Positions 542-60,693 are shown, counted from the first letter of the stretch. The stretch: DNA of 64,000 nt from an uncultured Clostridia bacterium (GCA_934130935.1 CAKOYQ010000001.1:95979-159978), one strand, 5' to 3'. Translations and numbers: made by a program. Notes: a model not told the origin generated them from the letters alone.

Positions 542-649
542 AAAATCCTCCCTTAGTTCTTATATATTATACAATATTTTCCCTCTAATGGCAAGTATTT
601 GTGTCTTATAAACCATTAAATAGTTACAGGATATGTTTTATTTTTCAAA

Positions 650-831
650 GAGAGACTTAAATATAAGCTTTGAATGAAATGACGAATGTGCATGGAGAAA
701 TTTTAGAAATTCTTATGTAGTTTTATGGTAAGAGTTCACGATAGTGGAAAGGACCCATAAAGCAAATTAGAATTTCTTAAATTTCGTAATAAGCCGAGGA
801 ATGTAATGAAAAGCTTATATTTAAGTCTCTC
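650..831. mobile_element. core repeat element copy A with 22-bp perfect terminal inverted repeats (MITE-like)
   Basis: The left end gagagacttaaatataagcttt and the right end aaagcttatatttaagtctctc are perfect inverted repeats. The conserved interior (gaatgaaatgacgaatg...gtaatgaaaag) is shared with the copies at 27207, 47078 and 60464. Confidence 0.6.
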
Positions 832-879
832 TTATAAAAAATCAAAATCATTATCTTATAACATTGAATCAGTCAATCT

Positions 880-2266: not shown

Positions 2267-4489
2267 CTAGGCTCCTCTTTCTTTTAATTTTTTATTTTTA
2301 ACTATGTCAACACCATATGTTATTGCTAATGTACAAATAGTTATAGACATCAAAATCATAATATAACTACCCTTGAAATTTGTAGCAGTAGGAACTAAAA
2401 TTTCTCTCAATAATTTAATTGAATATGTCATTGGCAAATAAGGTGTTACTGATTGAAATCCTTTATCTATTGTCTCTATTGGGAATGTACCCCCAGATGC
2501 TGCTAGTTGTAAAACAAGAATTATTAGTGCTAAAAATTTTCCAATATCTCCAAAGTTTCTAATTAGGAATTGAATGATACTTGTAAATGTAATACCTATT
2601 AAGATACTAGCAAAATAATATAATGCACTATTTTGAACTTCATATCCTAAACCTAATTTTAACAATGCTGCAACTATTATTCCTTGAATTGCGCCTATTG
2701 CTATATAAATTATATTCTGTAAAAACTTCTTTTCACTATTATGGTCTAAAATTCCAAATCTATGCTTTTGATCATAATACAATACCACATAACACATTAA
2801 TGCTCCTACCCACAAACCAATACATAAGAATAGTGGAGTAAATGCTATACCATAAGAATTAACTTTTCCATATTCTTCTGTCTTAAATTCTACTGGGTCT
2901 TCTGCAAACTCTTCAATACCTGAAAGGCTTTTTAAATCATTATTAGTAGTTTCAATATTTTTATTTATTTCATCATTAAATTCTTGTAAACCATCTGTTA
3001 ATTGTGTGCTTCCAGAATATAATGAATCTGTTCCAGCAGATAATTTATTTAAAGCTGTTTTTACTTGTATAGAACTACTGTCTAATTTCTCTAAACCACT
3101 TTTTAAACTATTACTTCCACCTAACAATTTAGTAGTTCCATTTTTTAAACTTCTTACACCAGACTGCAATGATTTAGTACCTATTTGAACTTGTGCTAAT
3201 GCAGATTGTAAATTTGTTATTCCTGATGTAATCTGTCCTAATGATTCAGACTTTTTAGCTAATAGTTGAGTACCAGTATATAACTCATTTGAACCTGCTT
3301 TTACAGCTCCTTCTAAACCTATTAATTGGTTAGCACCAGCCATTATAGTTGGCTCCATCTTAGTCAATGCAGTTTCAGATGTTTTTATACCTGTTCCATT
3401 TTTTGTTAATGATTCTATCTCTTTACTTTCAATAATATTTTTAGCTTTTATCGCTAATTTTTGAACATTAGCATCTTCGCTATTCTGTAATTCAGATAGT
3501 TCTGTTAATAACTCGGAAATTTGAGTATTTGATTCATTAACTGAATCAATATATTTATTTACATTTCCTAATAAATAATTTGTTCCATTTATATATCCTA
3601 TTGTTCCATTTGCTAGAGATGTTGCTCCATCTGCATATGCAGATAATTTAATATTTAAGTTCCCAGCCCCATTATTTATATCTGTAATACCATTTGATAA
3701 TGCTTGAACACCATCAGCTCCTTTTGCAGCTAAATCGTTAACTCCAGAATTTATTTGAGAAACCGCATTATTTAATGAATCAGAACCTGTGTTTAATGTA
3801 TCAACACCAGAGCTTACTTGATTAAGACCACTTTCTAAAGATTTACTTCCTTCATATGCTGAATTTACACCAGTATTAAATTCTGTATAACTATTGTTTA
3901 AAGTTGTAGTTCCATCATTAACTTCCTTAATTCCATTAGTCAAAGTCTCTGAACCATTTAATAATTGACCTGATGCATCAGATATCTTTTCTAAACTGTC
4001 AGGCACACTTTTTAAATTATCAGATAAATTTCCTACTATTGCACCACTAACCTTTGCTTGTAAATTAATCTCCATAGTCTTTACCGCACTGTTAATTATT
4101 TGAGAAGATAAATAGTTTGATGCTTGATTTGGACTATATGTTATAGTTGATATTTGTTTATCTGTTGTTGAAGCACTATTTAAACTCTTAGTAAAATTAC
4201 TAGGAATAGTTATAGTAGCATAATACTTACCATTTTGCATACCTTCATTTGCCTCATCTAATGTTACAGGACATATATCAAAAGTTCCATCATCTTGCAA
4301 AGATTTTAAAAATTCATTTCCCTGATTTTCATTGTTTTCGCCATCATCTAAATTAACTACAGCAATTTTTAATCCTTTCAAATCACCATATGGGTCCCAA
4401 TAAGATTTTAGATAGAAAAAACTGTATATTATTGGTATTAATAAAACAACCGCAAAAATTATAACTTCTAAAATTTTTTCTTTTTTCAT
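2267..4489 (-). CDS. YhgE/Pip domain membrane protein (phage infection protein-like)
   Basis: 740 aa with an N-terminal TM, a long extracellular region of repeated LxxGxxxLxxG-type Ser/Asn-rich segments, and a C-terminal multi-TM ABC-2-like bundle. It has the typical TetR partner immediately upstream. Confidence 0.65.
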   Translation of the reverse strand: MKKEKILEVIIFAVVLLIPIIYSFFYLKSYWDPYGDLKGLKIAVVNLDDGENNENQGNEFLKSLQDDGTFDICPVTLDEANEGMQNGKYYATITIPSNFTKSLNSASTTDKQISTITYSPNQASNYLSSQIINSAVKTMEINLQAKVSGAIVGNLSDNLKSVPDSLEKISDASGQLLNGSETLTNGIKEVNDGTTTLNNSYTEFNTGVNSAYEGSKSLESGLNQVSSGVDTLNTGSDSLNNAVSQINSGVNDLAAKGADGVQALSNGITDINNGAGNLNIKLSAYADGATSLANGTIGYINGTNYLLGNVNKYIDSVNESNTQISELLTELSELQNSEDANVQKLAIKAKNIIESKEIESLTKNGTGIKTSETALTKMEPTIMAGANQLIGLEGAVKAGSNELYTGTQLLAKKSESLGQITSGITNLQSALAQVQIGTKSLQSGVRSLKNGTTKLLGGSNSLKSGLEKLDSSSIQVKTALNKLSAGTDSLYSGSTQLTDGLQEFNDEINKNIETTNNDLKSLSGIEEFAEDPVEFKTEEYGKVNSYGIAFTPLFLCIGLWVGALMCYVVLYYDQKHRFGILDHNSEKKFLQNIIYIAIGAIQGIIVAALLKLGLGYEVQNSALYYFASILIGITFTSIIQFLIRNFGDIGKFLALIILVLQLAASGGTFPIETIDKGFQSVTPYLPMTYSIKLLREILVPTATNFKGSYIMILMSITICTLAITYGVDIVKNKKLKERGA

Positions 4490-8461: not shown

Positions 8462-8536
8462 GGCCCGTTGGTCAAGCGGTTAAGACGCCACCCTCTCAAG
8501 GTGGAATCATGAGTTCGATTCTCGTACGGGTCACCA
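8462..8536 (+). tRNA. tRNA-Glu (anticodon CUC as read from the loop ctCTCaa; encoded CCA)
   Basis: The acceptor stem ggcccgt/acgggtc and the D-arm gtcaagcggttaagac match the bacterial tRNA-Glu identity. The anticodon stem is ccacc/ggtgg, the loop is c-t-CTC-a-a, and the T-loop is ttcgatt. Confidence 0.85.
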
Positions 8537-8564
8537 TAATAATTTTATACTAACACATATAAAG

Positions 8565-8601
8565 AAAAAACATTACTAAATTTTAATTAGTAATGTTTTT
8601 T
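8565..8601. terminator. bidirectional rho-independent terminator after tRNA-Glu
   Basis: aaaaaacattactaa-attttaat-tagtaatgtttttt is a perfect 13-bp stem flanked by A-run and T-run. Confidence 0.6.
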
Positions 8602-8640
8602 CTTATATACGAAGAAACAACTAAAAGTAGCCACAATGAG

Positions 8641-9399
8641 CTACTTTATAAAGTCATCTAACTGTCTATATCTAATTATGAAAAATACTGCTCCAATCAA
8701 AAGTATTATTGATATTGTAATTATAGTACTTTTTATTCCAGCTTTAGGCAAATTTTGACCTGCTAAAGACTTATCTATTATCGAACTCTCTTGGTCAACT
8801 TCATCTATTTCATCATTAGAATTTTCATCTTCCGAACTATCTTCATCATCACTAGGCTCTTCTTCATTCTCATCATCTGGGCTTTCTTCTGTGTCATCTT
8901 GTTCTTCATCTCCGTTGTCTAAGTTGTCTTGACTGTCATCATTCAAATCGTCTTCATCTGAATTATCTGCATCTGCACTAAGTGTATCTCCAACTTTATA
9001 ATCTACCCATTCCTTTACAGCTGAAATATTTTCTTTTGTTTCATCTATATTTTCATCTGATAAATCTCTCGTTTGTGCCTTAAGTTCTGTGCTTATTGAA
9101 GTTTTTATTAGTGGGTTTATTCCTACTATATTATTAAATTTGCCAATATCTGAACTTAATTTTTGTTTCAATGAATTATTGACTTTTGTTGCATTATATA
9201 AATCTTCATGTATCATATCCACTACTTTTTTTAATTGTTTTAAATCCCCTAAGTCATCTTCATGTTTTTCTAATAAATTCTTTAAGTTCTTGCTTTTTGT
9301 ACTCGCATAAACAGTATTAGTATTTGCACACACAAGTACTAATAAACACATTAATACGATAGATAGCAACTTTTTATTTGCATTTATAAATTTTTTCAT
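8641..9399 (-). CDS. secreted acidic surface protein with C-terminal LPKAG-TM-RYR sorting-signal-like anchor
   Basis: 252 aa. It has a signal peptide (MKKFINANKKLLSIVLMCLLVLVCANTNTVYAST) and a ~70-aa low-complexity tract of about 60% D/E/S/N. The C-terminus reads LPKAG + hydrophobic helix + RYRQLDD, the arrangement of an LPxTG-type sortase substrate. Confidence 0.5.
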   Translation of the reverse strand: MKKFINANKKLLSIVLMCLLVLVCANTNTVYASTKSKNLKNLLEKHEDDLGDLKQLKKVVDMIHEDLYNATKVNNSLKQKLSSDIGKFNNIVGINPLIKTSISTELKAQTRDLSDENIDETKENISAVKEWVDYKVGDTLSADADNSDEDDLNDDSQDNLDNGDEEQDDTEESPDDENEEEPSDDEDSSEDENSNDEIDEVDQESSIIDKSLAGQNLPKAGIKSTIITISIILLIGAVFFIIRYRQLDDFIK

Positions 9400-9487
9400 T
9401 TTTTCATCTTCCTCATATTCTTTTGTTTAATTTTTTCTCTATACTGAAAGTATATCACATTATGTCTATTAAAGTCAATACCATTAA

Positions 9488-11809
9488 TTACTTATTCTTC
9501 TTTTTAAAATTTACCACAATAGCATTTTCATTATCAAATTCAAAATTCGCATCTGTATTGTCAATTTGAACAGGATTAAATTCATCTCTTTCGTCTACAA
9601 AATTGATATGTTTTGGATCAAATTTATTTCTTGTTGAGTCTTCTGAATCTTCATCATTTGCAACTCCTGGAGTAAATCTTGAAAAATCATATTTTTTAAC
9701 AGGCTGTTCTTCTTTATATTTAGAAGAAATAAAATTCATTTTTCCTTCACCTATAATAAAATCTCCAGTTTCTGCTTTTAGTTTAACAGCAGCTGACTTA
9801 AATTTTAAAGTTGCTAATTTGTTAGTCGCAAAATAACTTTCCCAATCATATTTTACACTTCCCCATTTTGCGTCATATTCTAATTTATTCATATCCATAC
9901 TATTTGAATAGGTCCATGTTCTTCTCTTTGTAAATTCTCGTGACCACCATTCCAATTCTTCTGGTGTAGATCCTCCCAAGAATATTTTACTAGCACAATT
10001 TGAAAGAATTGTATCTTTATATTTTAGCCTTGGAGAATTACCTTCCAACTGCGCTAAATTCTGTGCTGTAATTGTTGTTCCAACTTTATATTTACGGTAC
10101 AATGTAAACATTGCTTCTGTGTCTTTACATATAAAATCTGGAAATTCGTCTATATACAAGAAGTGCGGAATTCTACTATTCTCATTTCCTGCTCTTCTTA
10201 AAATAGCATTTTGCATTGACAACATAAAAAATAATCCAAATGCTCTATGGCTAGTTCTTCCTAAATCACCTCTACGTGTACAAACTAATGTAACCTCTCC
10301 ATTTTCCAATACTTTATCAAAATCTATATTATTATGCCTATTACATAAAATTGTTTTTACACCTGGTAGTCTTAACAAATTGTCTAATTGTGCTGTAGCT
10401 ATATAAATATATTTTTCTGTTTCCTCTCTTCCTGGACTTCCTGCATAAAAATTCTTTTTAAAATAATTTATTTGTATGCTATATTTTTTAGCAAGCTCAT
10501 CATTTGCCTTCATTATTTCACACATTTTTTCTACTAGGTCAAAATTAGTAAGCATTTTCAATAAATCTTCCAAATTAGGTATATTTCCGTTGTTCATTCT
10601 AGGATACATTTCTTTTAACATAATAGAAATATTTTCTAATGCTTGAATTATAAAATCTTCTCTATATGCTTCCTCTCTTTCCAAATGTGTACTTGCATAC
10701 ATTCCTTTTAATACTGATGAAATTGTTATAGCGATTTTTGATGCATCATCATATATAAATGGGTTTAATCCTATTGAATTCATATTTGATGGATCAATTA
10801 AATTGTATTTAATATGATAATTTTTACAAACATTCATTATTCTTGTTGCAGATTCTATATCTGGCGATATTGATGTTATTCCAAGGTTTCTATATACTAT
10901 ATCACTTCCAAGTGATGATAAAATCATTTTATTCATATATGCCTTATAAACCGCTTCTCTGCCAGTTGCTGGTGTTATCATATTTAAGTTAAAGTTATCA
11001 TTTAAATAATCATTATCATATGGTTTGTTTAATATTGCTATTCCTGTTTTTAATGCTGTATATCCCATTTCTTTTGCATTTGAAATATAAAATGCCTTTT
11101 TTTCTATATCTTTAGCCATCATTGGTTCTAATATTAATGATGTTTTTCCTGTTCCAGAACCTCCACATACTAATAGTGATTGATATCTACTCTTTTCTGC
11201 AAATACCATTTTCTTTCCACTTTCATAATTATTACACATATGTATGTCACATGTAAATGGTCCATGTCCTGCTGCTTTATTTGATAAGTTTATTCCTTTA
11301 TAGTCCCAAATAGATCTTGTTTGATCTTTACTGTCCATGATTCCTAATTTTATCCATTTAAACACACCATAAAATGTAGTTAATGGTAAATATAAAGCTA
11401 ATGCTGTTAATGCTGGTCTTATCAATTCTGAAAAATTTGTTACCAATTCTGTATATCCAGGTAATGATATCAAAAATAACCAAACTATTCTATTTATTCC
11501 TTGTGTAAACATTGAAACTGCAACTATATATAATGTTACAACATATGTAAGGAATAATGTAACCTTCATATTTTTTGATGTTGCAAATTCTGATGGTGGT
11601 GAAAATAAATATGCAAATACTGGACATGCCATTGCAAGTGTATATTGTATTGGTCCCCAATATGATACAGACACTCCTGTAAATATTAAAAATAACATCT
11701 CTACAACTCTATCTACTACTATATACAGTGATATTAATGTTAATATATATGTTGCAAATGTATTTCTACTTGCATTAATTTTCTTTAAAAATTTATCTAT
11801 TATTTTCAT
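9488..11809 (-). CDS. membrane-anchored TraG/TraD/VirD4-family (type IV coupling protein-like) P-loop ATPase
   Basis: 773 aa with about 5 N-terminal TM helices. Walker A is LVCGGSGTGKTS and Walker B is HFLYIDEFPDF. The downstream TITAQNLAQL...ILSNCASKIFLGG matches the T4CP QxxxQL/ilxN motifs. It is not FtsK/SpoIIIE, which would show a different Walker A and a gamma domain. Confidence 0.55.
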   Translation of the reverse strand: MKIIDKFLKKINASRNTFATYILTLISLYIVVDRVVEMLFLIFTGVSVSYWGPIQYTLAMACPVFAYLFSPPSEFATSKNMKVTLFLTYVVTLYIVAVSMFTQGINRIVWLFLISLPGYTELVTNFSELIRPALTALALYLPLTTFYGVFKWIKLGIMDSKDQTRSIWDYKGINLSNKAAGHGPFTCDIHMCNNYESGKKMVFAEKSRYQSLLVCGGSGTGKTSLILEPMMAKDIEKKAFYISNAKEMGYTALKTGIAILNKPYDNDYLNDNFNLNMITPATGREAVYKAYMNKMILSSLGSDIVYRNLGITSISPDIESATRIMNVCKNYHIKYNLIDPSNMNSIGLNPFIYDDASKIAITISSVLKGMYASTHLEREEAYREDFIIQALENISIMLKEMYPRMNNGNIPNLEDLLKMLTNFDLVEKMCEIMKANDELAKKYSIQINYFKKNFYAGSPGREETEKYIYIATAQLDNLLRLPGVKTILCNRHNNIDFDKVLENGEVTLVCTRRGDLGRTSHRAFGLFFMLSMQNAILRRAGNENSRIPHFLYIDEFPDFICKDTEAMFTLYRKYKVGTTITAQNLAQLEGNSPRLKYKDTILSNCASKIFLGGSTPEELEWWSREFTKRRTWTYSNSMDMNKLEYDAKWGSVKYDWESYFATNKLATLKFKSAAVKLKAETGDFIIGEGKMNFISSKYKEEQPVKKYDFSRFTPGVANDEDSEDSTRNKFDPKHINFVDERDEFNPVQIDNTDANFEFDNENAIVVNFKKKNK

Positions 11810-20220: not shown

Positions 20221-20251
20221 GTCTTTTTGCTAATCTTTTTATTTTTTTTGA

Positions 20252-20315
20252 GGGACATTTGGGGTCGGTTCCGTTTTTGACCTTGGGCAATTTGGGGTCG
20301 GTTCTATTTTTGCCC
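20252..20315 (+). repeat. tandem pair of 31-bp GGGCAA-hairpin repeat units (first unit degenerate)
   Basis: gggacatttggggtcggttccgtttttgacc + tt + gggcaatttggggtcggttctatttttgccc + tttt. The pair lies between the nrdD stop and the hrcA promoter. The same unit recurs at 25350, 27106-27182, 27409-27485, 52116, 60406 and 60657. Confidence 0.85.
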
Positions 20316-25349: not shown

Positions 25350-25413
25350 GGGCAATTCGGGGTCGGTTCCATTTTTGCCCTTGGGACATTTGGGGTCGGT
25401 TCCGTTTTTGCCC
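25350..25413 (+). repeat. tandem pair of 31-bp GGGCAA-hairpin repeat units
   Basis: gggcaattcggggtcggttccatttttgccc + tt + gggacatttggggtcggttccgtttttgccc + ttttt. The pair fills the intergenic gap between the kinase-like gene stop and the RNHCP start. Confidence 0.85.
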
Positions 25414-25420
25414 TTTTTAA

Positions 25421-27028
25421 TTATCCCTTAAAATCTCCTCCACCAAGAAATTCTTTAAGCAAAGAATTTGATGGAACTAATTCTTTTGGTATTGGTTCGA
25501 AATATCGCAATATCTCAAGTAATCTTTGTGCCTCAGCATATTCTGGTTCTGAGTTTTTGATTTGTTTTAATAATGGTTCAGCTTCAGCTTTAAGTACTCC
25601 TAATTCATAAATCAATGATGTATTAAAAATACTATCAGCATCTTCTTGGAATGGAAATATATTTCTTTCTTCCCCTCTATTTACATTATTCCACGTCTGA
25701 ATTGTTTTTTGAGGTGAATATCCTCTAAACTGATTATCTCTAACAATTCTCCTTATTAGTCTTGTATCTGTTGTTGAAATTCTATTAAAAGCATCCATAT
25801 TAAGTACTGTTAACGCACTTATATACACTTTGTATTTTTGGTCATGTGGTATTTTTTCGGTCAATTTATCATTTAAGCAATGAATTCCTTCAATTACAAG
25901 TATATCGTCTTTCTCCATTTTTATTTTATTTCCATTATATTTCTTAGTTCCTTCATGAAAATCAAATTCTGGTGTTTCAACTTCCTCCCCATTTAACAAT
26001 GCTAATAAATGCTTATTAAATAGTTCTGTATCAATAGCGTCAATACTTTCAAAGTCATATTCTCCTTTTTTATTTAGAGGTGTCTGTGATCTTTCTACAA
26101 AGTAATTATCTACAGAAATTGTTACAGGTCTCAATCCATTTATTTTAAGTTGAATACCTAATCTTTGTGCAAATGTTGTCTTTCCTGATGACGATGGCCC
26201 AGCTATTAAAATTATTTTTACACCTTTTCTTTCTGCTATTTTATCTGCTATTTGAGAAATTTTTTTCTCATGTAAAGCTTCTGACAATAGTATCATATAT
26301 TTTATTTGATTTTCTTTTACAATTCTGTTTAATCTATATACTGTTCCTACATTTAAAACTCTGTATATCGTCTCATATTCTTGTAAAGCCCATAATAATT
26401 TTTTTGTTTCTTTAAATTCTGGAATTATATTAACATTACTTGAAGTTGGATATCTTAACAAAAAACCATCACTATATTTTTGCAAGTCAAATAATTTTGT
26501 AACTCCTGTATGTGTTGCAATTATCTCATAGAAGTAATTAAAATAATCATCACAGTAATACATGTTAATATCTTCTTTTTCTTTTAAATCAAATTGTAAT
26601 CTTCCTTTTGGTGTATTTGTTTCTTTGTAAAATACTTCTGCTTCTTGTCTAGTCATTGTCCTTTTTTCTATCTTTAAATCTTTTTTAATTATTTCTTGCA
26701 TTTTCTCTTTGACTTTTTCTAGCATATCATCAGTTATTTCCATATTTTCTATATTACAATACATTGCATGTGATAATTGGTAATCTACAATTATATGTGC
26801 CTCTGGATATATATGCCAAAATGCTTTTCCCATTATAAATGTCAAAGTTCTTCTATATATTTTCATTCCTTCTTTTGAATTAATTTTAATTAGTTCTATG
26901 TCTCCATTCTTTGCAACTATGTCATCTAAATTTTTATATTCATTATTAACTTTAGCTCCTACAACTGGATATTCACTCTTTTCTATTTGTTCTTTTAATA
27001 ATTCTGATATTCTTATATTTTCTTCCAT
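25421..27028 (-). CDS. uridine kinase/phosphoribulokinase-family nucleoside kinase with N-terminal TGS-like domain
   Basis: 535 aa. A P-loop (IAGPSSSGKTTFAQRL) sits in the C-terminal half, and the N-terminal ~200 aa resemble the ThrRS/GTPase TGS fold. This architecture is conserved in Clostridia. Confidence 0.6.
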   Translation of the reverse strand: MEENIRISELLKEQIEKSEYPVVGAKVNNEYKNLDDIVAKNGDIELIKINSKEGMKIYRRTLTFIMGKAFWHIYPEAHIIVDYQLSHAMYCNIENMEITDDMLEKVKEKMQEIIKKDLKIEKRTMTRQEAEVFYKETNTPKGRLQFDLKEKEDINMYYCDDYFNYFYEIIATHTGVTKLFDLQKYSDGFLLRYPTSSNVNIIPEFKETKKLLWALQEYETIYRVLNVGTVYRLNRIVKENQIKYMILLSEALHEKKISQIADKIAERKGVKIILIAGPSSSGKTTFAQRLGIQLKINGLRPVTISVDNYFVERSQTPLNKKGEYDFESIDAIDTELFNKHLLALLNGEEVETPEFDFHEGTKKYNGNKIKMEKDDILVIEGIHCLNDKLTEKIPHDQKYKVYISALTVLNMDAFNRISTTDTRLIRRIVRDNQFRGYSPQKTIQTWNNVNRGEERNIFPFQEDADSIFNTSLIYELGVLKAEAEPLLKQIKNSEPEYAEAQRLLEILRYFEPIPKELVPSNSLLKEFLGGGDFKG

Positions 27029-27105
27029 ATCTTTTCCTTTCTTATCTTAATGTAAATCTTTTAAACAATTAAAAATATTTTACTATATATCCCTTAAAAA
27101 ATCAA

Positions 27106-27485
27106 GGGTAATTTGGGGGACATTTGGGGTCGGTTCCGTTTTTGCCCAATGGGGTAATTCGGGGTCGGTTCCATTTTTGCCCTTTTTCTCTTAAATATGA
27201 TAATTATTAATATTAAATATAAACTTTAAATGAAATGACGAATATGATTGGAGAAACTTTAGAAATTCTACGAAATTTTATGGAAAGAGTTCACGAGAGT
27301 GGAAGGGTGCCATAAAATAAGTTAGAATTTCTTAAGTTTCGTAATGAATCGAGGGAATGTAATGCAAAGTTTATATTTAATATTAATAAATTAGTTATGT
27401 CTCGAAAAGGGCAAAAGTGGAACCGACCCCGAATTACCCCATTGGGCAAAAACGGAACCGACCCCAAATGTCCCCCAAATTACCC
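27106..27485. mobile_element. composite palindromic element: 77-bp inverted arms (two GGGCAA-hairpin units each) flanking a ~180-bp copy of the conserved core element (MITE-like)
   Basis: The left arm 27106-27182 and the right arm 27409-27485 are reverse complements with a single mismatch. The core at 27207-27386 is homologous to the cores at 650-831, 47078-47259 and 60464-60630. Confidence 0.6.
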
Positions 27486-27516
27486 GCACAAAAAAACGAG
27501 CATTTCTGCCCGTCTT

Positions 27517-29064
27517 CTATTTTGCATAATCAACAACTCTAGTTTCTCTAATAATATTGACTTTTATTTGTCCTGGATAATCCATCTCATCTTCGATTCT
27601 CTTAGACACATCTCTTGCAAGTAAAGTCATTTGATCATCTGAAATTTTTTCTGGTTTTACAATTATTCTTACTTCTCTACCAGCTTGAATTGCAAATGAT
27701 TTTTCAACTCCGTCAAAAGAATCAGCTATAGACTCAAGATTTTCCAATCTTTTTATGTAAGCTTCCAAAGTTTCTCTTCTTGCTCCTGGTCTTGATGCTG
27801 ATATCGCATCAGCAGCTTGTACTAATACAGCTTCTAGCGTTTGTGGTTCAACATCTCCATGGTGTGCCTCTACTGCATTTATTACAAGTTGGTTTTCTTT
27901 AAATTTCTTTAATATATCTACACCAATCTGAACATGAGTTCCCTCCATGTCATGATCTAAGGCTTTACCTATGTCATGTAACAATCCAGCTCTACGTGCA
28001 AGTTTTGGATCTAAGCCAAGCTCTTCTGCCATTATCCTTGCTAAGTTTGAAACTTCTATTGAGTGATTTAATACATTTTGTCCATAACTTGTTCTGTATT
28101 TTAACTTTCCTATTAGTTTTATAAGTTCTGGATTTAAACCAATTACTCCAGTTTCTAATGCTGCTCTTTCTCCCTCTGATTTTATAGTTTCTGACAATTC
28201 TTCTTTAGCCTTTTCTACCATTTCTTCTATTTTGGCTGGATGTATTCTTCCATCATCTATCAACTTCTCAAGGGCAATTCTTGCTACTTCTCTTCTTAAT
28301 GGATCAAAACCTGATAATATCACTGCTTCTGGTGTATCATCTATTATTAAATCTATTCCTGTAAGAGTCTCTAATGCTCTTATATTTCTACCTTCTCTAC
28401 CTATAATTCTTCCTTTAATATCATCTGATGGAAGTGGTACTATTGAAACTGTAGTCTCTGCTGAGTGGTCTGCAGCACATTTTTGAATTGCATAACTTAT
28501 TGTCTCTCTTGCATTCTTCTTTGCTTCCTCTTTAGCTTTTTGCTCTAAATCTTTAATTAATATAGCTTTTTCAGCTGTTATTTCTTGTTCCACTGAACTC
28601 AATAATTGTACTTTTGCCTCTTCTTTAGTTAAGTTCGCAACCTTTTGAAGAACCTCTAATTGCTCATTCTTTAATTCTTCAATATGCTGTTCCTTCTCTT
28701 TTAGTTCACGTTCTCCTTTTTCTAACTCTCTTTCTTTTTTCTCAAAATTGTCTGAACGTTTTTCTAAGTTCTCTTCTTTTTGGATAATTCTACTTTCTTG
28801 TTTTTGTATTTCGCCTCTTCTTTCTTTAATCTCTTGATCTAATTCATTTCTAGCATTCATAATTTCTTCTTTTGCTTTAAAAATTTGTTCTTTTTTTAAA
28901 TTTTCTGCCTCTATTTTCGCTAGGTCTACTAATCTTTGTGCTTCTTTTTCTGCTCCTCCAATTTTAGATTCAGCAATTTTTTTTCTTATTACCATCCCCA
29001 ATGGTATTCCTATTGCTAATGAGATTAAGACAGTGGCTACTATGATTAAAATATCCATAATCAT
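27517..29064 (-). CDS. rny: ribonuclease Y
   Basis: 515 aa with an N-terminal TM and a long K/E-rich coiled coil. It has a KH domain and an HD domain ([18 protein letters not shown]). Confidence 0.9.
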
Positions 29065-34029: not shown

Positions 34030-36654
34030 TTATTGATTATTTGTCGTATTATCTGTTGTACTTCCTCCTGTTTCTGTGTTTCCAGTGTCTCCAGAACTAG
34101 GTTTTTCTGGTTCCTCAGTTGGCCCTGTATCTGGTTTTGTAGGTTCTTCTGTTCCACTATTATTAGGTTTCTCTGGTTCTGTATTAACATTTGGTTGTTC
34201 TGTTGGAGTTTCTGGAACTGTTGGTTGTGTAACTACTTCTGCAGCTTTTTTATGTATTGTACAATATTCTGTTGGTGCTGTTCCCATAGTAGTTCCAATA
34301 CCATGTGTTGTCCATAATCCTAATCTTTCTTTTTCTACAACATAATTAGCAGATTTTCTCTCTTTTGACGGACAAAATTCATTTGCTAATCGACCTGATT
34401 CCCTACATATTGTATATTGATTTTGATGTGCATCACACTCTTCTGGTAAATGTCCATCAACAAATATTTCATCATATGTACTTGAACATTTATTAGTTGC
34501 TATTCTACCACTTGTTCTACATATTGTCGCATGTACTATTTTGTCTGGAACTTTAAATGTTGAATTTTCTAATCCTTTATGAATTTCCGACATTATTCCC
34601 GAAAATAACAGTCCTGCTGGATTTGTTCCAGAAAAGTTAATTCTTTGAGGATCATCAAATCCATACCATGCTGCACAAGCATAATAATTTGTAAATCCAC
34701 ATAACCATCTATCTTTTGAAGAGTTCGTTGTTCCTGTCTTTGCTGCCACATCAATTCCATTGATAGCACAATATTTAGCAGTACCTGCATATCCATCAGC
34801 ACCATTTATAACAGATTGCATTAAGTTTTTAATAATATATGCTGTTTCTGCTGAACATACTGTTTCCGTTTTTTGTTTTGGTTCTAACACTACTTTTCCA
34901 TCAGAATCTTCTACTTTAGTATAGAATGTTGGTTCAATGTAATTTCCATCATTTGCAACAGCTGCATATGCTGCAGCCATTTCTAATGGACTTACTCCAT
35001 ATGTCATTCCACCTATTGCTAATGATAAGTTTTCATCATTATGGTCCTTATTTTCACTTGCATGCACAAGTGATGAAATTCCCATTTTTTCCATATATTC
35101 TATTGACTTTTGTGGTGTTAATTCTGCCATAACTTTAAGGAATGGTATATTTTGAGATGTTGTTACAGCTGTTCTTATTGTCCTTAACCCTGTGAATCCA
35201 TTGTAGTTTTCTGGCTCATAATCTTTTCCAAATGTTGTCTTTAAATCTGCATAAATTGTTGCTGGTGTTATTATTCCTTCTTCTATTCCAGGCAACACAT
35301 CTGCTAATGGCTTTATAGATGACCCTGTTTGTCTTTTTGAATTTATTCTGTTTAATCCTCTTGAAGTTGTCTTCTCTCTTAATTGACCTACTGCTCCAAC
35401 TACTTTTCCTGTTGATGGTTCTATAACTACTGCTGCACCTTCTGCTAGAATTGATGCTCCGTTTTCATCTTTTATTACTTTTCCATTTTTATCTTTTAGT
35501 TCTAATTTGTATTTACCTTTTTGTACTTCTGCTTCCATAGCCTTTTGTATTGATGATACCTGTGTTGAATATATTTTTAGGCCACTTGTTTGTAAATATG
35601 TTTCTGCTGCATCTTTTGATATTTGTTTTTCTTCCATTATTTGTTGAGTTAATTGTGTTATCAATGCATCTGTGTGTGAAGAATATACATTTCCTCTAAC
35701 ACCATTTTCAAATTTAAACCCTGCTTCAACTTCAGCTACAGCATTATCATATTCTTCTTGATTTATATAATTAAATTTCTTCATTTGTGATAACACTGTT
35801 TTTGTTCTTTTAGAAATTTTTTCTGTTACATCATTTCCTGAATATGGATTATATGCATTAGGAGAATGATTTATTCCTGCTAAAAATGCACATTGAGCTA
35901 TACTTAAATCTTTAGCTGTTTTATTAAAATAATACTCTGATCCAATTTCAACTCCGTGTTTTTCGCTTCCGCCATTTCCTACATATATTAAATTCAAATA
36001 TAATTCTATTATCTGGTCTTTTGACATTACTTTTTCTATTTGATATGCTTTTGACCATTCCTTTAACTTTCTAACAACACCTGCTGCACCACTTGATGCT
36101 TTTTCTTGGGTTACATTTTTTACAACTTGTTGTGTTATTGTACTTCCACCACCAGCTGTTGATTTTCCACCATGTGTTACAAATGAAAGCACTGCTGCTC
36201 CTGTTCTTTTTATATCTACACCATGATGTTGCTCAAATCTTTCATCTTCTATTGATATATATGCTTTTGGTAAATATGGAGACATCTCTTCAAGTGTTAT
36301 TATTTTTCTACTTTCATCTCCATTTAATTCTGCCAGAACTTCTTTATCTGTATCCATTATCATGGAATTCTCTTTCATTATCAATTCTGACATGTCTATT
36401 GAAAAATCTTCCCCATAAAGTCCATATATTAGTCCTACTGCAACACCTGCTCCTATTACTATTAAAATCACAAAAATAATTAAAATTATTTTCAAAAATA
36501 ATGCTAGTTTTGGATGTTTGTATTTTAATTTCATTTTAGTGTCTTTTCTTTTAGCTTTTGCGTCTTTATTTCCTCTTTTTTCTACTGTTTTATTTCTTGT
36601 TTTTCTATTTTTATATGTTCCATTATTTGTTGATTTTTTTCTTTTTTTCCCCAT
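34030..36654 (-). CDS. class A penicillin-binding protein (PBP1A-type transglycosylase/transpeptidase)
   Basis: 874 aa with an N-terminal basic tail and TM. It has the GT51 motifs (EDERFEQHHGVD, RKxxE) and the transpeptidase SxxK (SGSSIKP). The C-terminus is a Pro/Thr/Glu-rich low-complexity tail. Confidence 0.85.
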   Translation of the reverse strand: MGKKRKKSTNNGTYKNRKTRNKTVEKRGNKDAKAKRKDTKMKLKYKHPKLALFLKIILIIFVILIVIGAGVAVGLIYGLYGEDFSIDMSELIMKENSMIMDTDKEVLAELNGDESRKIITLEEMSPYLPKAYISIEDERFEQHHGVDIKRTGAAVLSFVTHGGKSTAGGGSTITQQVVKNVTQEKASSGAAGVVRKLKEWSKAYQIEKVMSKDQIIELYLNLIYVGNGGSEKHGVEIGSEYYFNKTAKDLSIAQCAFLAGINHSPNAYNPYSGNDVTEKISKRTKTVLSQMKKFNYINQEEYDNAVAEVEAGFKFENGVRGNVYSSHTDALITQLTQQIMEEKQISKDAAETYLQTSGLKIYSTQVSSIQKAMEAEVQKGKYKLELKDKNGKVIKDENGASILAEGAAVVIEPSTGKVVGAVGQLREKTTSRGLNRINSKRQTGSSIKPLADVLPGIEEGIITPATIYADLKTTFGKDYEPENYNGFTGLRTIRTAVTTSQNIPFLKVMAELTPQKSIEYMEKMGISSLVHASENKDHNDENLSLAIGGMTYGVSPLEMAAAYAAVANDGNYIEPTFYTKVEDSDGKVVLEPKQKTETVCSAETAYIIKNLMQSVINGADGYAGTAKYCAINGIDVAAKTGTTNSSKDRWLCGFTNYYACAAWYGFDDPQRINFSGTNPAGLLFSGIMSEIHKGLENSTFKVPDKIVHATICRTSGRIATNKCSSTYDEIFVDGHLPEECDAHQNQYTICRESGRLANEFCPSKERKSANYVVEKERLGLWTTHGIGTTMGTAPTEYCTIHKKAAEVVTQPTVPETPTEQPNVNTEPEKPNNSGTEEPTKPDTGPTEEPEKPSSGDTGNTETGGSTTDNTTNNQ

Positions 36655-36748
36655 TTTTTTATCCTCCCTTTTGGCATAAAATGGATTTTATAATTTTTTT
36701 AAACATTTGACAACATTATAATACATTTTCTAAAAAAAGAAAAGCTTT

Positions 36749-37585
36749 TTAAGAAAATCTTTCGATTTTTCCATTCACTCCAAATACCTCTTTTATTGAA
36801 ATTTTATTTTTTGATATCTTATTACGTATATTATTAAAACTGTCTTTCATATACATAATTGCTTCAAGTAAATCTTTATTTTTAAATTTCTTTGCATTCT
36901 CTCTCCAAACGATTTCTTCTTTTCCAACCTCTATTTCATAATCATTTATATTTATTCCATTAAAACGTTTTGATTCTATTTTCATATTTCCTTCCAAATT
37001 TATAATTATTGCTTTTTCATTTATTTTATATCTATTTAATACTTCTTTATTAAAATCTAAATTTAGTATTATTCGTGGCCTTAACAAACTTTTTTTCTGA
37101 TTGTTGGATATAACTATCAAAACTCCATATTTTTCATATATTTCTTTTTCTATCTTTTTCAATTTTTCTATATGATTTGTTACAACTGTTAATCTTCTAT
37201 ATTGTGTTGCTAGTGTTCTTATTATCTCTATACTGATATCTGTAATTTCATTTGTCGTTATTGCAAATTCAATTTCTTCCTTTTTTAACCCTATTTGTTT
37301 TATTACATAATCTAATATTTCAAATACTAAATATTTTTCTAGCCATCTTCCATCAAATATGTCTATACCACTTGAATTTATGGCATTTATTAAATCTCTA
37401 TTTTCGCACAATTCTTTACTTAAAACAACATTTGTTGTTCCATTTTTTATTAGTTTTTTTATAACTTTTATTATATTTCTTTCCTTTTCTAAATTTGCAT
37501 ATATTTTAAAATTATCTTTTTCTATTTTCATTTTGTATAAATGAAACCTATGCTTATCCAATTTTTCTATATAAAATGTCTTCAT
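36749..37585 (-). CDS. hypothetical protein
   Basis: 278-aa ORF with good coding periodicity and no motif I can assign. It lies between the PBP1A gene and the GH18 gene. Confidence 0.35.
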   Translation of the reverse strand: MKTFYIEKLDKHRFHLYKMKIEKDNFKIYANLEKERNIIKVIKKLIKNGTTNVVLSKELCENRDLINAINSSGIDIFDGRWLEKYLVFEILDYVIKQIGLKKEEIEFAITTNEITDISIEIIRTLATQYRRLTVVTNHIEKLKKIEKEIYEKYGVLIVISNNQKKSLLRPRIILNLDFNKEVLNRYKINEKAIIINLEGNMKIESKRFNGININDYEIEVGKEEIVWRENAKKFKNKDLLEAIMYMKDSFNNIRNKISKNKISIKEVFGVNGKIERFS

Positions 37586-46858: not shown

Positions 46859-47077
46859 TTTACTTTTTCCTTTTCTTTTTTATAATTTATACATAAAGTT
46901 GCATAATATTTCATTCTTTTTTATCTTATCAATAATATTTTTTTTTTGCAATACTTATGGTTCTAAAAAAAAACAGAAAATTTTGTTTTTTTCTACATTT
47001 CTATCATTTTTCTTTCTATTTCTCCATTTTTTGTTTTTTGTAAATTTTCTGTAAATTTTATTATATTATTAATTTTA

Positions 47078-47259
47078 CTCTTAGAATACTATAAACTTTG
47101 AATGAAATTCCGAATGTGCATGTAGAACCTTTAGAAATTTTTATGTAATTTTATGGAAAGAGTTCACGAGAGTGGAAGGGTGCCATAAAATAAATTAAAA
47201 TTTCTTAAGGTTCGAAATAAACCGAGGAATGAAATGAAAAGTTTATAGTATTCTAAGAG
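47078..47259. mobile_element. core repeat element copy C with 22-bp terminal inverted repeats (MITE-like), between Alg13-like gene stop and ftsE promoter
   Basis: The left end ctcttagaatactataaacttt and the right end aaagtttatagtattctaagag are perfect inverted repeats. The core is homologous to the copies at 650, 27207 and 60464. Confidence 0.6.
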
Positions 47260-47265
47260 TATATA

Positions 47266-47745
47266 TTAATTATTATCTATAAAATCCTGTACAATGCTTA
47301 TAATTTTTCCTGTATTTTGAATATATTTCTTAGGTTCAAATTTTTCAATTCTCTTTAACGCATCTCCTAATTGAGAAACATCTGTAACTCCTATAATATA
47401 TCCCATTTCGTCAAAAGATTTTACAATATCAAGTTGATGGTTATTTACATGTTCATTATACTCTTTTAATCTAGGAACAGCAATCACCTTTTTGCCTTGT
47501 TCTATTGAAGTTATAATTGAACCAACCCCACCATGTGTTATAATCAAGTCTGCTTTATTTATTAATTTTTTCATTTCTTCCATTGGAATTTGATTATATA
47601 TTGTCATATCTTTACTTGAAAACTTTGTATAACCTTCTTGAACAATTACACTATCTTTTATGTTTCCATTCTCTATGTTTCTCTGTATTTCTTCTAGTAA
47701 TCTATGGAAACTATTATTTTGTGTTCCTAACAATACTAATACCAT
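47266..47745 (-). CDS. Alg13-like glycosyltransferase subunit (GT28 C-terminal domain; PssE/Cps14G-like)
   Basis: 159 aa. ADLIITHGGVGSIITSIEQGKKVIAVPR matches the UDP-sugar binding half of split MurG/Alg13-type transferases. Confidence 0.65.
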   Translation of the reverse strand: MVLVLLGTQNNSFHRLLEEIQRNIENGNIKDSVIVQEGYTKFSSKDMTIYNQIPMEEMKKLINKADLIITHGGVGSIITSIEQGKKVIAVPRLKEYNEHVNNHQLDIVKSFDEMGYIIGVTDVSQLGDALKRIEKFEPKKYIQNTGKIISIVQDFIDNN

Positions 47746-48387: not shown

Positions 48388-49272
48388 TTATGCTCTTGGA
48401 TGTGCTTTTTTATAAATATTTTTTAATGATTCATCTTGAAACTGCATATATACTTGCGTTGATAAAATATCAGAATGTCCTAACATAGTTTGAATAGATT
48501 TTAAGTCTGCACCATTTTGTAATAAATGTGTTGCAAATGAATGACGTAAAACATGTGGTGTTATGTCTTTATCTATATGTGCTTGGTCTTTGTAATATTT
48601 TATAATTTTCCAAAATCCTTGTCTTGTTAAACGTTTTCCATTTACATTTACAAATAATGCATTTTGCTTCTCATCTTTAATCATTATTTTTCTTGCATTA
48701 AGTATATAATCTTTCAAAGCTTTTAAAGACATGTTTCCTATTGGCACTGTTCTCTCTTTTTTGCCATTTCTACATGTTGCATACCCTGTTTCTAAATTAA
48801 TATCTTCAACATTTAAAGATATAATTTCTGTTACTCTCATTCCTGTGGCATAAGCAAATTCAAGCATAGCTTTATCTCTTATTCCTTTTAAATTAACATT
48901 TTTAGGTTGTTCTAATAATAATGCAACTTCATTTGATGTTAATACATTTGGTACTCTTTTTTCTATTTTTGGAGATTGAATCCCTTCTGTTGGGTCTTTT
49001 TCCACAACTTTGTTTTTTACTTCATATTGATAAAATGACCTTATTGACGCTAATCCTCTTGATATTGTTGATGGCTTTTTTCCTATTTCTTGCATATGTG
49101 CTAGATATGTTTTTATTCCTTCTTCTGTTAACTCGCTATAATCTTCTCTTCCTTCTTCTAACATGTATTTTTCAAATTGTTTTAAATCTCTCTTATATGA
49201 TTGAAGTGTGTTTATTGACACTTTTTTCTCATTCTCCAAAAAATCAAAAAATAAGTTTAATTGCTCTTCCAT
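48388..49272 (-). CDS. xerD: site-specific tyrosine recombinase XerD/XerC-like
   Basis: It has an N-terminal SAM-like domain and a catalytic C-terminus (HVLRHSFATHLLQNGADLKSIQTMLGHSDILSTQVY). It lies next to spoIIM, as in Bacillus/Clostridium. I placed the start at the ATG with a GGGGGAA RBS. Confidence 0.8.
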   Translation of the reverse strand: MEEQLNLFFDFLENEKKVSINTLQSYKRDLKQFEKYMLEEGREDYSELTEEGIKTYLAHMQEIGKKPSTISRGLASIRSFYQYEVKNKVVEKDPTEGIQSPKIEKRVPNVLTSNEVALLLEQPKNVNLKGIRDKAMLEFAYATGMRVTEIISLNVEDINLETGYATCRNGKKERTVPIGNMSLKALKDYILNARKIMIKDEKQNALFVNVNGKRLTRQGFWKIIKYYKDQAHIDKDITPHVLRHSFATHLLQNGADLKSIQTMLGHSDILSTQVYMQFQDESLKNIYKKAHPRA

Positions 49273-49385
49273 TTTTTCCCCCATCTACGATATATTTTAT
49301 TGTCTCTTATCAATTATTTACATAACTGATTGTTACTATGTTATATCAAATTTTTAATAAAAAGTAAAGAGATTTTATATAATTT

Positions 49386-52115: not shown

Positions 52116-52146
52116 GGGCAATTTGGGGTCGGTTCCATTTTTGCCC
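52116..52146 (+). repeat. solo 31-bp GGGCAA-hairpin repeat unit
   Basis: gggcaatttggggtcggttccatttttgccc followed by ttttttatttt. It lies between the ftsH stop and the downstream gene's RBS. Confidence 0.85.
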
Positions 52147-60389: not shown

Positions 60390-60405
60390 GCATTTTCTCC
60401 TTTTA

Positions 60406-60687
60406 GGGCAAATTGGGGTCGGTTCTTTTTTTGCCCTCTTAATAATTTATTAGAATTACCAATATAAATATAAATTTTAAATGAAATGACGAATGTAATT
60501 GGAGAAACTTTAGAAATTGTATGAAATTTCATGGAAATAGTTCATGAGAATGAAAGGGTGCCATAAAATAAATTACAATTTCTTAAGTTTCGTAATGCGC
60601 CGAGGAGTGTAATGAAAAATTTATATTTATATTAGTAATTAGTATTAAAAATTAAAGGGCAAAAAAAGAACCGACCCCAATTTGCCC
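60406..60687. mobile_element. composite palindromic element: perfect 31-bp inverted GGGCAA-hairpin arms flanking core repeat copy D
   Basis: The arm at 60406-60436 is the reverse complement of the arm at 60657-60687. The core at 60464-60630 has aaaattt/aaatttt subterminal repeats. The element fills the ftsY-to-UPF0182 intergenic region. Confidence 0.65.
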
Positions 60688-60693
60688 TTTTTT

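Follow-up and report, generated by a model that had tools for sequence, protein, structure and literature searches.

Correia repeat enclosed elements (CREE, also known as NEMIS) of Neisseria are reported to invert in place and to mark rearrangement breakpoints (PMC10969869, PMC3454330), and their hairpin transcripts are substrates of RNase III (PMC10969869, PMC2649163, PMC3454330). They are the closest functional counterpart of the element described here, a 380-bp palindrome at positions 27106-27485 of a 64,000-nt stretch of DNA (the window) from an uncultured Clostridia bacterium (GCA_934130935.1, CAKOYQ010000001.1:95979-159978), located beside rny, the gene for RNase Y. The preferred reading, to which a probability of about 0.78 is assigned, is that the palindrome is a composite in which an old, immobilised foldback miniature inverted-repeat transposable element (MITE) of ~255 bp lies within mirrored doublets of a unit resembling repetitive extragenic palindromic (REP) sequences and inverts by recombination between the arms.

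The resemblance to CREE is one of organization. In both cases the elements are small, non-coding and intergenic, occur in multiple copies, carry inverted-repeat ends round a conserved core, and form long hairpins, and here inversion is seen in 6 of 22 observations with breakpoints placed at the element in one contig of the same species (L112; L numbers designate the fetched loci) and between species. Differences occur in several respects, beginning with the absence of any sequence relationship and a host belonging to another phylum. Correia elements duplicate TA, whereas an 8-bp target duplication is found here. Inversion was observed in the present case only at sites where a separate GC-rich repeat brackets the MITE, and neither a promoter nor an integration host factor site is evident. 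Two features stand out, a conserved hairpin with a strand bias and an inversion observed only where the GC-rich units flank a copy.

The arms recall the REP sequences and bacterial interspersed mosaic elements (BIME) of Enterobacteria and Pseudomonas, which are associated with REP-associated tyrosine transposases (RAYT), in that the arm units are imperfect palindromes of 32 nt that are strictly intergenic and arranged singly, in tandem, or inverted. Unlike REP/BIME, these units have no GTAG-like head and are restricted in lineage, no RAYT is present in the available sequence, and the units associated with a MITE are always symmetric, occupying both sides. Of the small repeats found in pneumococci, RUP makes TA duplications. 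The passages of the cited source that concern BOX, RUP, and SPRITE describe small Firmicute repeats that cluster and insert into one another intergenically (PMC10969869). The variable number of sub-units in the modular BOX is paralleled here by arms of one, two, or three units. The sequences are unrelated, however, and the same passages describe no in-place inversion for those repeats (PMC10969869).

Invertons, short segments flanked by inverted repeats, are present in both orientations in natural gut populations (PMC11892184, PMC10028968). The segment between the inverted repeats is likewise found here in both orientations; unlike invertons, it has no adjacent invertase and no promoter within the flipped segment, and the position of the crossover is apparently variable. 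In Drosophila Foldback (FB) transposons and in the flip-flop inversions of chloroplast hairpin loops, recombination in the stem recurrently inverts the loop. The present architecture, with long inverted arms of tandem sub-repeats in variable number round a central loop, may by analogy be compared with these systems, although they are eukaryotic or organellar and unrelated in sequence and enzymes.

Anatomy of the 380-bp Palindrome

The inverted arms identified by the repeat search (Table 1) are 81 nt long and 99% complementary with one mismatch, and 218 nt separate them. Each arm is composed of two 32-nt units at a spacing of 35 nt, placed at 27116-27147 and 27151-27182 on the left and mirrored at 27409-27440 and 27444-27475 on the right, with a likeness between arm units of 84-88%. 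An initial annotation of the window had described arms of 77 bp with a single mismatch, each made of two GGGCAA...TTGCCC units; the mismatch and the two-unit composition hold, the measured length is 81 nt, and in place of the strict unit ends the locus reads GGGGACA.../GGGGTAA...TTTGCCC. The interior between the arms is a nested imperfect palindrome in its own right, with a variable outer stem formed by TTATTAATATTAAATATAAAC and GTTTATATTTAATATTAATAA.

The region 27100-27490 folds as a single hairpin with an energy of -226.8 kcal/mol on the + strand (z = -23.9, with 0/100 shuffles as good) and -212.9 kcal/mol on the - strand. The palindrome is real and far above chance. Its placement directly downstream of rny is also borne out, the palindrome beginning just past a terminator-like hairpin of that gene. 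An open reading frame (ORF) at 27397-27624 (75 aa), which had been set aside as a product of the repeat, is most likely a translation artefact, since its first codons lie in the right arm and it continues into rny on the antisense strand.

Orientation and Rearrangement among Strains

An exact query with the RNase Y protein gave no record. The neighbouring RNHCP protein (107 aa), encoded 1.7 kb away, has exact matches in many human-gut metagenome contigs, ten of which supplied loci of the same species (L109-L118), and a scan of metagenomes for the promoter-side junction gave two contigs (L145 and L146), both starting inside the element. The flanks of L109-L118 differ from the window by <1%. The palindrome is present at the rny site in 13/13 conspecific sequences. 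Four of them (L109, L110, L111, and L146) have the whole inter-arm segment inverted; L112-L118, L145, and the window itself have it unflipped. The second composite copy in the window, located between ftsY and a UPF0182 gene and bounded by units forming a 33-nt perfect inverted repeat, is flipped in 2/9 strains (L121 and L123), and all asymmetric inter-unit markers are reversed. The unit-free copies are never flipped (0/17, being 0/9 at 47040..47292 and 0/8 at 623..862), and inversions amount overall to 6/22 strain-locus observations at unit-bracketed copies. All four window loci are filled in every conspecific strain. Flipped and unflipped strains are interleaved on the flank haplotypes, and not a single SNP, for example, separates L109 (flipped) from L118 (unflipped) over 2.7 kb of the rny flank. 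Both orientations occur naturally in near-identical strains and only at unit-bracketed copies.

The site of the arm mismatch is polymorphic, with the combinations (c,a) unflipped, (t,g) flipped, (c,g) flipped, and (t,g) unflipped, as expected from arm-arm recombination in which the crossover varies or conversion occurs. In L110 each arm has one unit compared with two in the other strains. A more extensive change is present at L112:2230-3308, where minC takes the place of rny upstream and the left arm and left half-core are those of another composite copy, which indicates a chromosomal rearrangement by recombination between copies of the element.

Assembly artefacts of the inverted repeat, producing both the inversions and the rearrangement, are a very improbable explanation. 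The 81-nt arms do exceed k in the k77 SPAdes assemblies, and many contigs end inside the element (L012:5600-5844, L075:1880-2098, L145:1-200, L146:1-175, and other locus ends), making the repeat family a frequent assembly breakpoint. The arms at the ftsY locus, at 33 nt, are nevertheless far under the k of 141 implied by the contig name of L121, and the SPAdes assembly of L123 has a coverage of 53x; these two, together with L109, provide the firmest evidence for the flip. Each flipped sequence matches the reverse complement exactly, asymmetric markers included, and has single-nucleotide polymorphisms (SNPs) of its own. Flips are seen in six independent samples, whereas the unit-free copies never flip in like assemblies.

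A second explanation is that the locus is an inverton in the strict sense, the units being recognition sites for a site-specific invertase encoded elsewhere and the flip toggling a promoter, terminator, or RNA of the core. The length of the ftsY repeat would suit this, 33 nt being typical of inverton repeats, as would the distribution of the events: all six flips cross over in the units and never in the AT-rich inner stems of 18-24 nt, they affect each of the two inverted pairs of units in the window but none of the unit-free copies, and they are found in almost identical strain backgrounds. However, no dedicated invertase adjoins the rny or the ftsY composite copy or is encoded in the window, where the sole recombinase is of the XerC/D type and lies beside spoIIM. 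The combinations of SNPs at the inner ends of the arms, in what is a small sample, point to crossovers at differing positions or to gene conversion. Promoter-like signals in the core do not exceed chance level, and the symmetry of the arms at rny shields the neighbouring promoter from the flip. For inversion by RecA or by template switching, inverted repeats of 33-81 nt spaced ~220 bp apart are sufficient, and Correia elements themselves invert with no known dedicated enzyme. This explanation is considered distinctly unlikely.

In other species, the rny orthologues in L070 and L026 and the PRK-family orthologue in L081 are without the element, and in L026 the terminator-like hairpin is kept at the end of rny with no element after it. 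Homology ends exactly at the palindrome edges, at window position 27106 in the comparison with the L081 upstream region and at ~27490 on the other side, and the neighbouring gene differs in each compared species, which places the element at a synteny breakpoint. The element at rny is lineage-specific and fixed within the species.

The MITE Family

The core of the palindrome belongs to a dispersed family. A scan of a genome collection with a core pattern matched at least 108 loci, and an nhmmer search with a profile of the window's own four copies gave at least 132 family copies in the fetched loci, of which 89 are full length with flanks. The loci come nearly all from gut metagenome-assembled genomes (MAGs) labelled uncultured Clostridia bacterium, obtained from humans (Hadza, Nepal, and others) and rabbits, and include one complete chromosome of 1.55 Mb. 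The three further core copies that the initial annotation had noted in the window are present, all on the + strand (Table 1), corresponding to a density of ~4 copies per 64 kb. The prospect raised there that arms and core would be found only at this locus is contradicted by the core matches and by the arm units, which also occur elsewhere. The Rfam, sequence-collection, and literature searches gave no description of the family.

When folded with their flanks, the copies share a layout of a highly conserved centre, a variable outer stem, and, in many, conserved termini (GTTACAGGTTAATGG...CCATTAACCTGTAAC). The outer stem is perfectly self-complementary within each copy, as in agaaagacttgaaatataag, aaatccttgatatataag, and gaatgcctcgggatataag. 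Canonical copies are 249-255 bp in size and end in a terminal inverted repeat, GTTACNGGTTAATGG and its complement, and 42/44 occurrences of GTTACNGGTTAATGG in the loci adjoin a core. In the copies with both termini (n = 20), the 8-bp flanks match at 8/8 positions in eight, 7/8 in six, and 6/8 in three, so that target-site duplications with at least six matching positions, which the initial annotation had proposed to look for, are present in 17 of 20; random pairings of 8-mer flanks match at 8/8 in 0.15% of cases. A clean filled and empty pair is provided by L064 and by window positions 36614-36825, respectively, where L064 has a 258-bp insertion with terminal repeats and with AAATTTTT/AAATTTTA at its flanks. 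Comparison of flanks gave ~17 further orthologous pairs with the element in one species only, mostly with ragged intergenic alignments. Empty sites are thus found for the family between species; none is found at the rny locus or within the species.

These properties bear out, for the core, the initial suggestion of a MITE, based on terminal inverted repeats, 8-bp duplications, orthologous presence and absence, and multiple copies. On this evidence the core is the centre of a previously undescribed MITE of ~255 bp that makes 8-bp target duplications, and the combination of the GTTACNGGTTAATGG terminal repeats with duplications of this length points to a DDE-type transposase supplied in trans. 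The family is non-coding, its sole ORF-like stretch being 11 codons from ATG to TAA within helices 5 and 6. This apical mini-ORF, MERVHESGRVP, was rejected as a coding sequence, because loop indels of 1-2 nt would shift its frame and it falls within helices that covary.

An autonomous insertion sequence (IS) was sought at orphan terminal repeats and incomplete cores, all of which proved to be truncated or internally deleted MITEs. Internally deleted copies are present at L017:308-360 and L059:2610-2729, with short direct repeats such as TTTAGAAATT on either side of the lost apex, and show decay by slippage within the hairpin. Core subfamily and end type were compared, and they do not correspond cleanly. 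A second repeated sequence, ...GCATTCGCTAYGCTCATTTGRTCGCTTACGCGGTAT...CAATATATTATTAATTTTCTAAAAT, is located directly beside some MITE copies (L070:5490-5620, L074 at ~3344, and L011 at ~1824).

Conservation of the Core Hairpin

The structure of the core was analysed in 93 copies with a consensus of 59 pairs. Paired cells make up 97.3% compared with 87.0% after shuffling (0/500 shuffles as high), changes on both sides occur in 32 pairs compared with 18.8 expected, and the covariation score is 0.295 compared with 0.100 in shuffled alignments and 0.04-0.07 in slid-partner controls. Departures from Watson-Crick pairing within the inner helices are nearly all G·U on the window + strand and A·C is almost absent, one pair for example being U·G in 49 copies, U-A in 33, and C-G in 9, and another U·G in 79, U-A in 11, and C-G in 2. 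The outer variable stem differs in that A·C is at least as frequent as G·U. Two internal-loop motifs rich in purines, GAATGAAATGA and GAATGTAATGA, hardly vary, whereas the apical loop varies in both sequence and length. Identity of the core between species is 82-92%, as high as that of the adjoining coding DNA.

The bias toward G·U in the inner helices set against the tolerance of A·C in the outer stem argues for selection on folding of one strand at the centre, which appears to act on RNA or single-stranded DNA, and the outer stem would behave as a palindrome at the level of DNA. The pattern suggests that the hairpin itself may be required, either for mobilisation or as an RNA or single-stranded DNA structure. 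A requirement in mobilisation or a cis-acting effect of an RNA hairpin is more likely than a trans-acting RNA, and cis-acting hairpin effects are reported for other MITEs (PMC10969869).

A structured non-coding RNA was among the possibilities raised initially. In its full form the core would be primarily an RNA gene of this kind or a cis-acting RNA element, copied to various places in the genome, with MITE-like ends that are incidental. Compensatory changes in 32/59 pairs, inner helices that accept G·U and almost never A·C on one strand, the nearly invariant loop motifs, and a conservation equal to that of flanking coding DNA are all in its favour. No Rfam family corresponds to it, however: at the gathering threshold only one tRNA passes in the window, and the permissive search of 27000-27600 returns only plant miRNA-precursor models at 73.7 bits against a threshold of 211, which is a generic similarity of long hairpins, so that the core is not reclassified at either threshold. 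The promoter and terminator scan of the core gave no conserved signal above chance level, and the apical loop is variable. The copies show no preferred orientation with respect to the genes beside them (34 opposite, 23 same, 15 divergent, and 7 convergent). The terminal repeats, 8-bp duplications, and filled and empty sites show transposition, there are ~4 copies per 64 kb, and the G·U bias could come from a master copy in the absence of selection. As the primary identity of the core, an RNA is therefore unlikely.

A combined possibility, quite improbable on present evidence, is that the MITE has been co-opted together with the REP-like repeat as a phase-variable inverton of RNA orientation, in which the core would function as a structured RNA or as a single-strand element, with the units serving as recombination sites. 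If this were true, the flip would pick the strand of the core within a host operon transcript, for example that of ftsY and UPF0182, and the processing or stability of the mRNA would come under heritable yet reversible control in an uncultured lineage of gut Clostridia.

The GC-rich REP-like Units

The 32-nt unit has the consensus GGGCAATTTGGGGTCGGTTCCATTTTTGCCC, and a single unit forms a modest hairpin of ~-12 kcal/mol. The window has 11 occurrences of its motif GGGGTCGGTTCC, compared with 0 expected. As an extragenic imperfect palindrome found in solo, tandem, and inverted arrangements, the unit has the properties by which REP and BIME are recognised. Among the fetched loci it is confined to the window, the conspecific contigs (L109-L127, L145, and L146), and the MAG HGM12814 (L012 and L075). 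In HGM12814 a unit abuts the core with an identical unit-core junction at two loci, L012 and L075, both at contig ends, and L075 has three units on one side.

Different GC-rich units are located at MITE ends in other species, of the GGACCGGGTACA type in L065 and L010, and of the CCAGTGGGGACACCC type in L026, where two units per side surround the same MITE core in a still larger palindrome of like design, 425 nt in length (L026:1990-2420). The MITE-associated units of other species are on both sides in 5/5 cases. The arms are accordingly a separate family of REP-like repeats attached symmetrically to the MITE. A truncated core beside a GGACC-type unit is present in L026 at ~3008-3129. GC-rich units of other species are also seen in inverted or mixed, BIME-like clusters with no MITE core (L041:173-230 and L099:569-650).

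These units bear on a further proposal of the initial annotation, a palindrome-associated transposable element (PATE) derived from IS200/IS605; a related possibility is a REP/RAYT system that moves in single-stranded form. The element is a hairpin over its full length, its arm units are REP-like 32-nt extragenic palindromes in solo, tandem, and inverted arrangement, and no target-site duplication flanks the arms, all of which would suit such a system. The core family nevertheless has terminal inverted repeats and 8-bp duplications, and IS200/IS605 elements are not known to have either terminal inverted repeats or target-site duplications. No Y1_Tnp (TnpA), TnpB, or RAYT is encoded among the ~50 ORFs of the window, nearby genes included, and the units have no 5' signature of the GTAG type seen in classical REPs. 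An origin of this kind is most improbable, and for the core the duplications refute it.

Proposed Mechanism

In the composite reading the MITE family moves, or has moved, by a cut-and-paste or copy-in mechanism using a DDE-type transposase that would be supplied in trans, and it occurs widely across a lineage of uncultured gut Clostridia whose genomes are small and AT-rich. Where long and nearly identical arms lie ~220 bp apart, they would recombine with each other and flip the enclosed MITE body. The same arm-arm recombination may keep the arms homogenised, as suggested by their 99% identity and by the reduction of both L110 arms to one unit, and occasional recombination with other copies would rearrange the chromosome. 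The inversion probably proceeds by homologous recombination or replication template-switching with no dedicated invertase. At rny the element and its flip are probably largely neutral, since the element is located after a terminator and before the -35 box of the next gene and the arms are symmetric, which leaves the promoter-proximal sequence equal in both orientations.

Several observations weigh against this reading. The copy at rny retains the family terminal repeats only as degenerate remnants, a target-site duplication was looked for outside the palindrome arms and is not detectable, and there is no clean empty site for the locus, with 13/13 conspecifics filled and a different neighbour gene in the other species. 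No autonomous IS with these terminal repeats was found in ~0.8 Mb of related loci, a BLAST search with a 255-bp copy found neither an autonomous partner nor a family match in plasmid and phage collections, and the terminal-repeat pattern gave a single chance match in viral contigs, inside a phage coding region. Conservation of the core like that of coding DNA, with a one-strand G·U bias, exceeds the needs of a plain MITE. The identical junction in L012 and L075 suggests that the composite can spread as a whole, and the symmetry has several possible origins, namely insertion of the MITE into an inverted cluster of units, copying from arm to arm, or spread of the composite. Finally, assemblers with k <81 could set the orientation of the 81-nt arms arbitrarily.

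On the composite reading, the small-genome gut Clostridia of humans and animals, a poorly known group represented only by metagenome bins, gain a MITE family that is abundant and previously undescribed, together with a REP-like repeat as its companion. The elements break assemblies, mark synteny breakpoints, and show two orientations in near-identical strains, so that pipelines for finding invertons will flag them and strain-level comparisons can be misled. They also offer a tractable case in which to ask whether MITE hairpins are kept for mobilisation or for a host function at the level of RNA, and whether short inverted repeats alone can give switching resembling phase variation in Firmicutes.

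Other Features of the Window

The features of the window are collected in Table 1. The rny gene occupies 27517-29064 on the - strand and encodes a protein with the Pfam domains RNase_Y_N, KH, and HD; the next gene, at 25421-27028 on the - strand, belongs to the PRK/uridine-kinase family, and the palindrome lies between the two. Read along the - strand, the order is rny, the terminator-like hairpin, the palindrome, the candidate promoter, and the PRK-family gene. An automated terminator scan reported 0 terminator-like sites and did not call the hairpin at the end of rny. The 8-mers flanking MITE copy 1, ATTAAATA and ATTGAATC, are alike at 6/8 positions. The three sites at which units occur free of a MITE are all in short spacers of co-directional genes.

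Table 1. Positions of the palindrome, related repeats, and adjoining signals in the 64,000-nt window
Feature	Position	Strand	Description	Basis
Left arm	27106..27186	+	Two tandem 32-nt GC-rich REP-like units plus short flanks	Repeat search, motif count
MITE body between arms	27187..27404	+	Core hairpin 27215-27377	Family alignment, covariation
Right arm	27405..27485	-	Reverse complement of left arm; one mismatch near inner end	
Intrinsic-terminator-like hairpin of rny	27487..27515 (approx.)	-	GACGGGCAGAAATGCTCGTTTTTTT; just outside palindrome	Read by eye
Candidate sigma-70 promoter, PRK-family gene	27077..27105	-	TTGATT-17-TAAAAT; abuts outer edge of left arm	
Second composite copy	60405..60688	+	One unit per side (60405-60437, 60656-60688), core 60466-60627	
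MITE copy 1, unit-free	623..862	+	Core 658-821; degenerate terminal repeats GTTACAGGATATG... / ...CATTATCTTATAAC	
MITE copy 3, unit-free	47040..47292	+	Core 47087-47249; ends approximate, termini decayed	
Tandem REP-like unit pair, no MITE	20250..20315	+	Between nrdD and hrcA	
Tandem REP-like unit pair, no MITE	25350..25413	+	Fills 85-nt gap between PRK-family and RNHCP genes	
Solo REP-like unit	52116..52146	+	Between ftsH and next gene	

The ~50 ORFs of the window are housekeeping genes with the addition of one Xer-type recombinase and a TraG-like protein, and no transposase is found among them. The XerC/D-type tyrosine recombinase, the only recombinase in this set, is encoded at 48388-49284 (-) beside spoIIM, ~1.1 kb from MITE copy 3, a copy that does not invert. 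A tRNA at 8462-8533 is followed by an unannotated ORF of 252 aa at 8641-9399 and by a TraG/TraD-like coupling protein at 9488-11809, and the region 8462-11809 may be the remnant of an integrated conjugative element.

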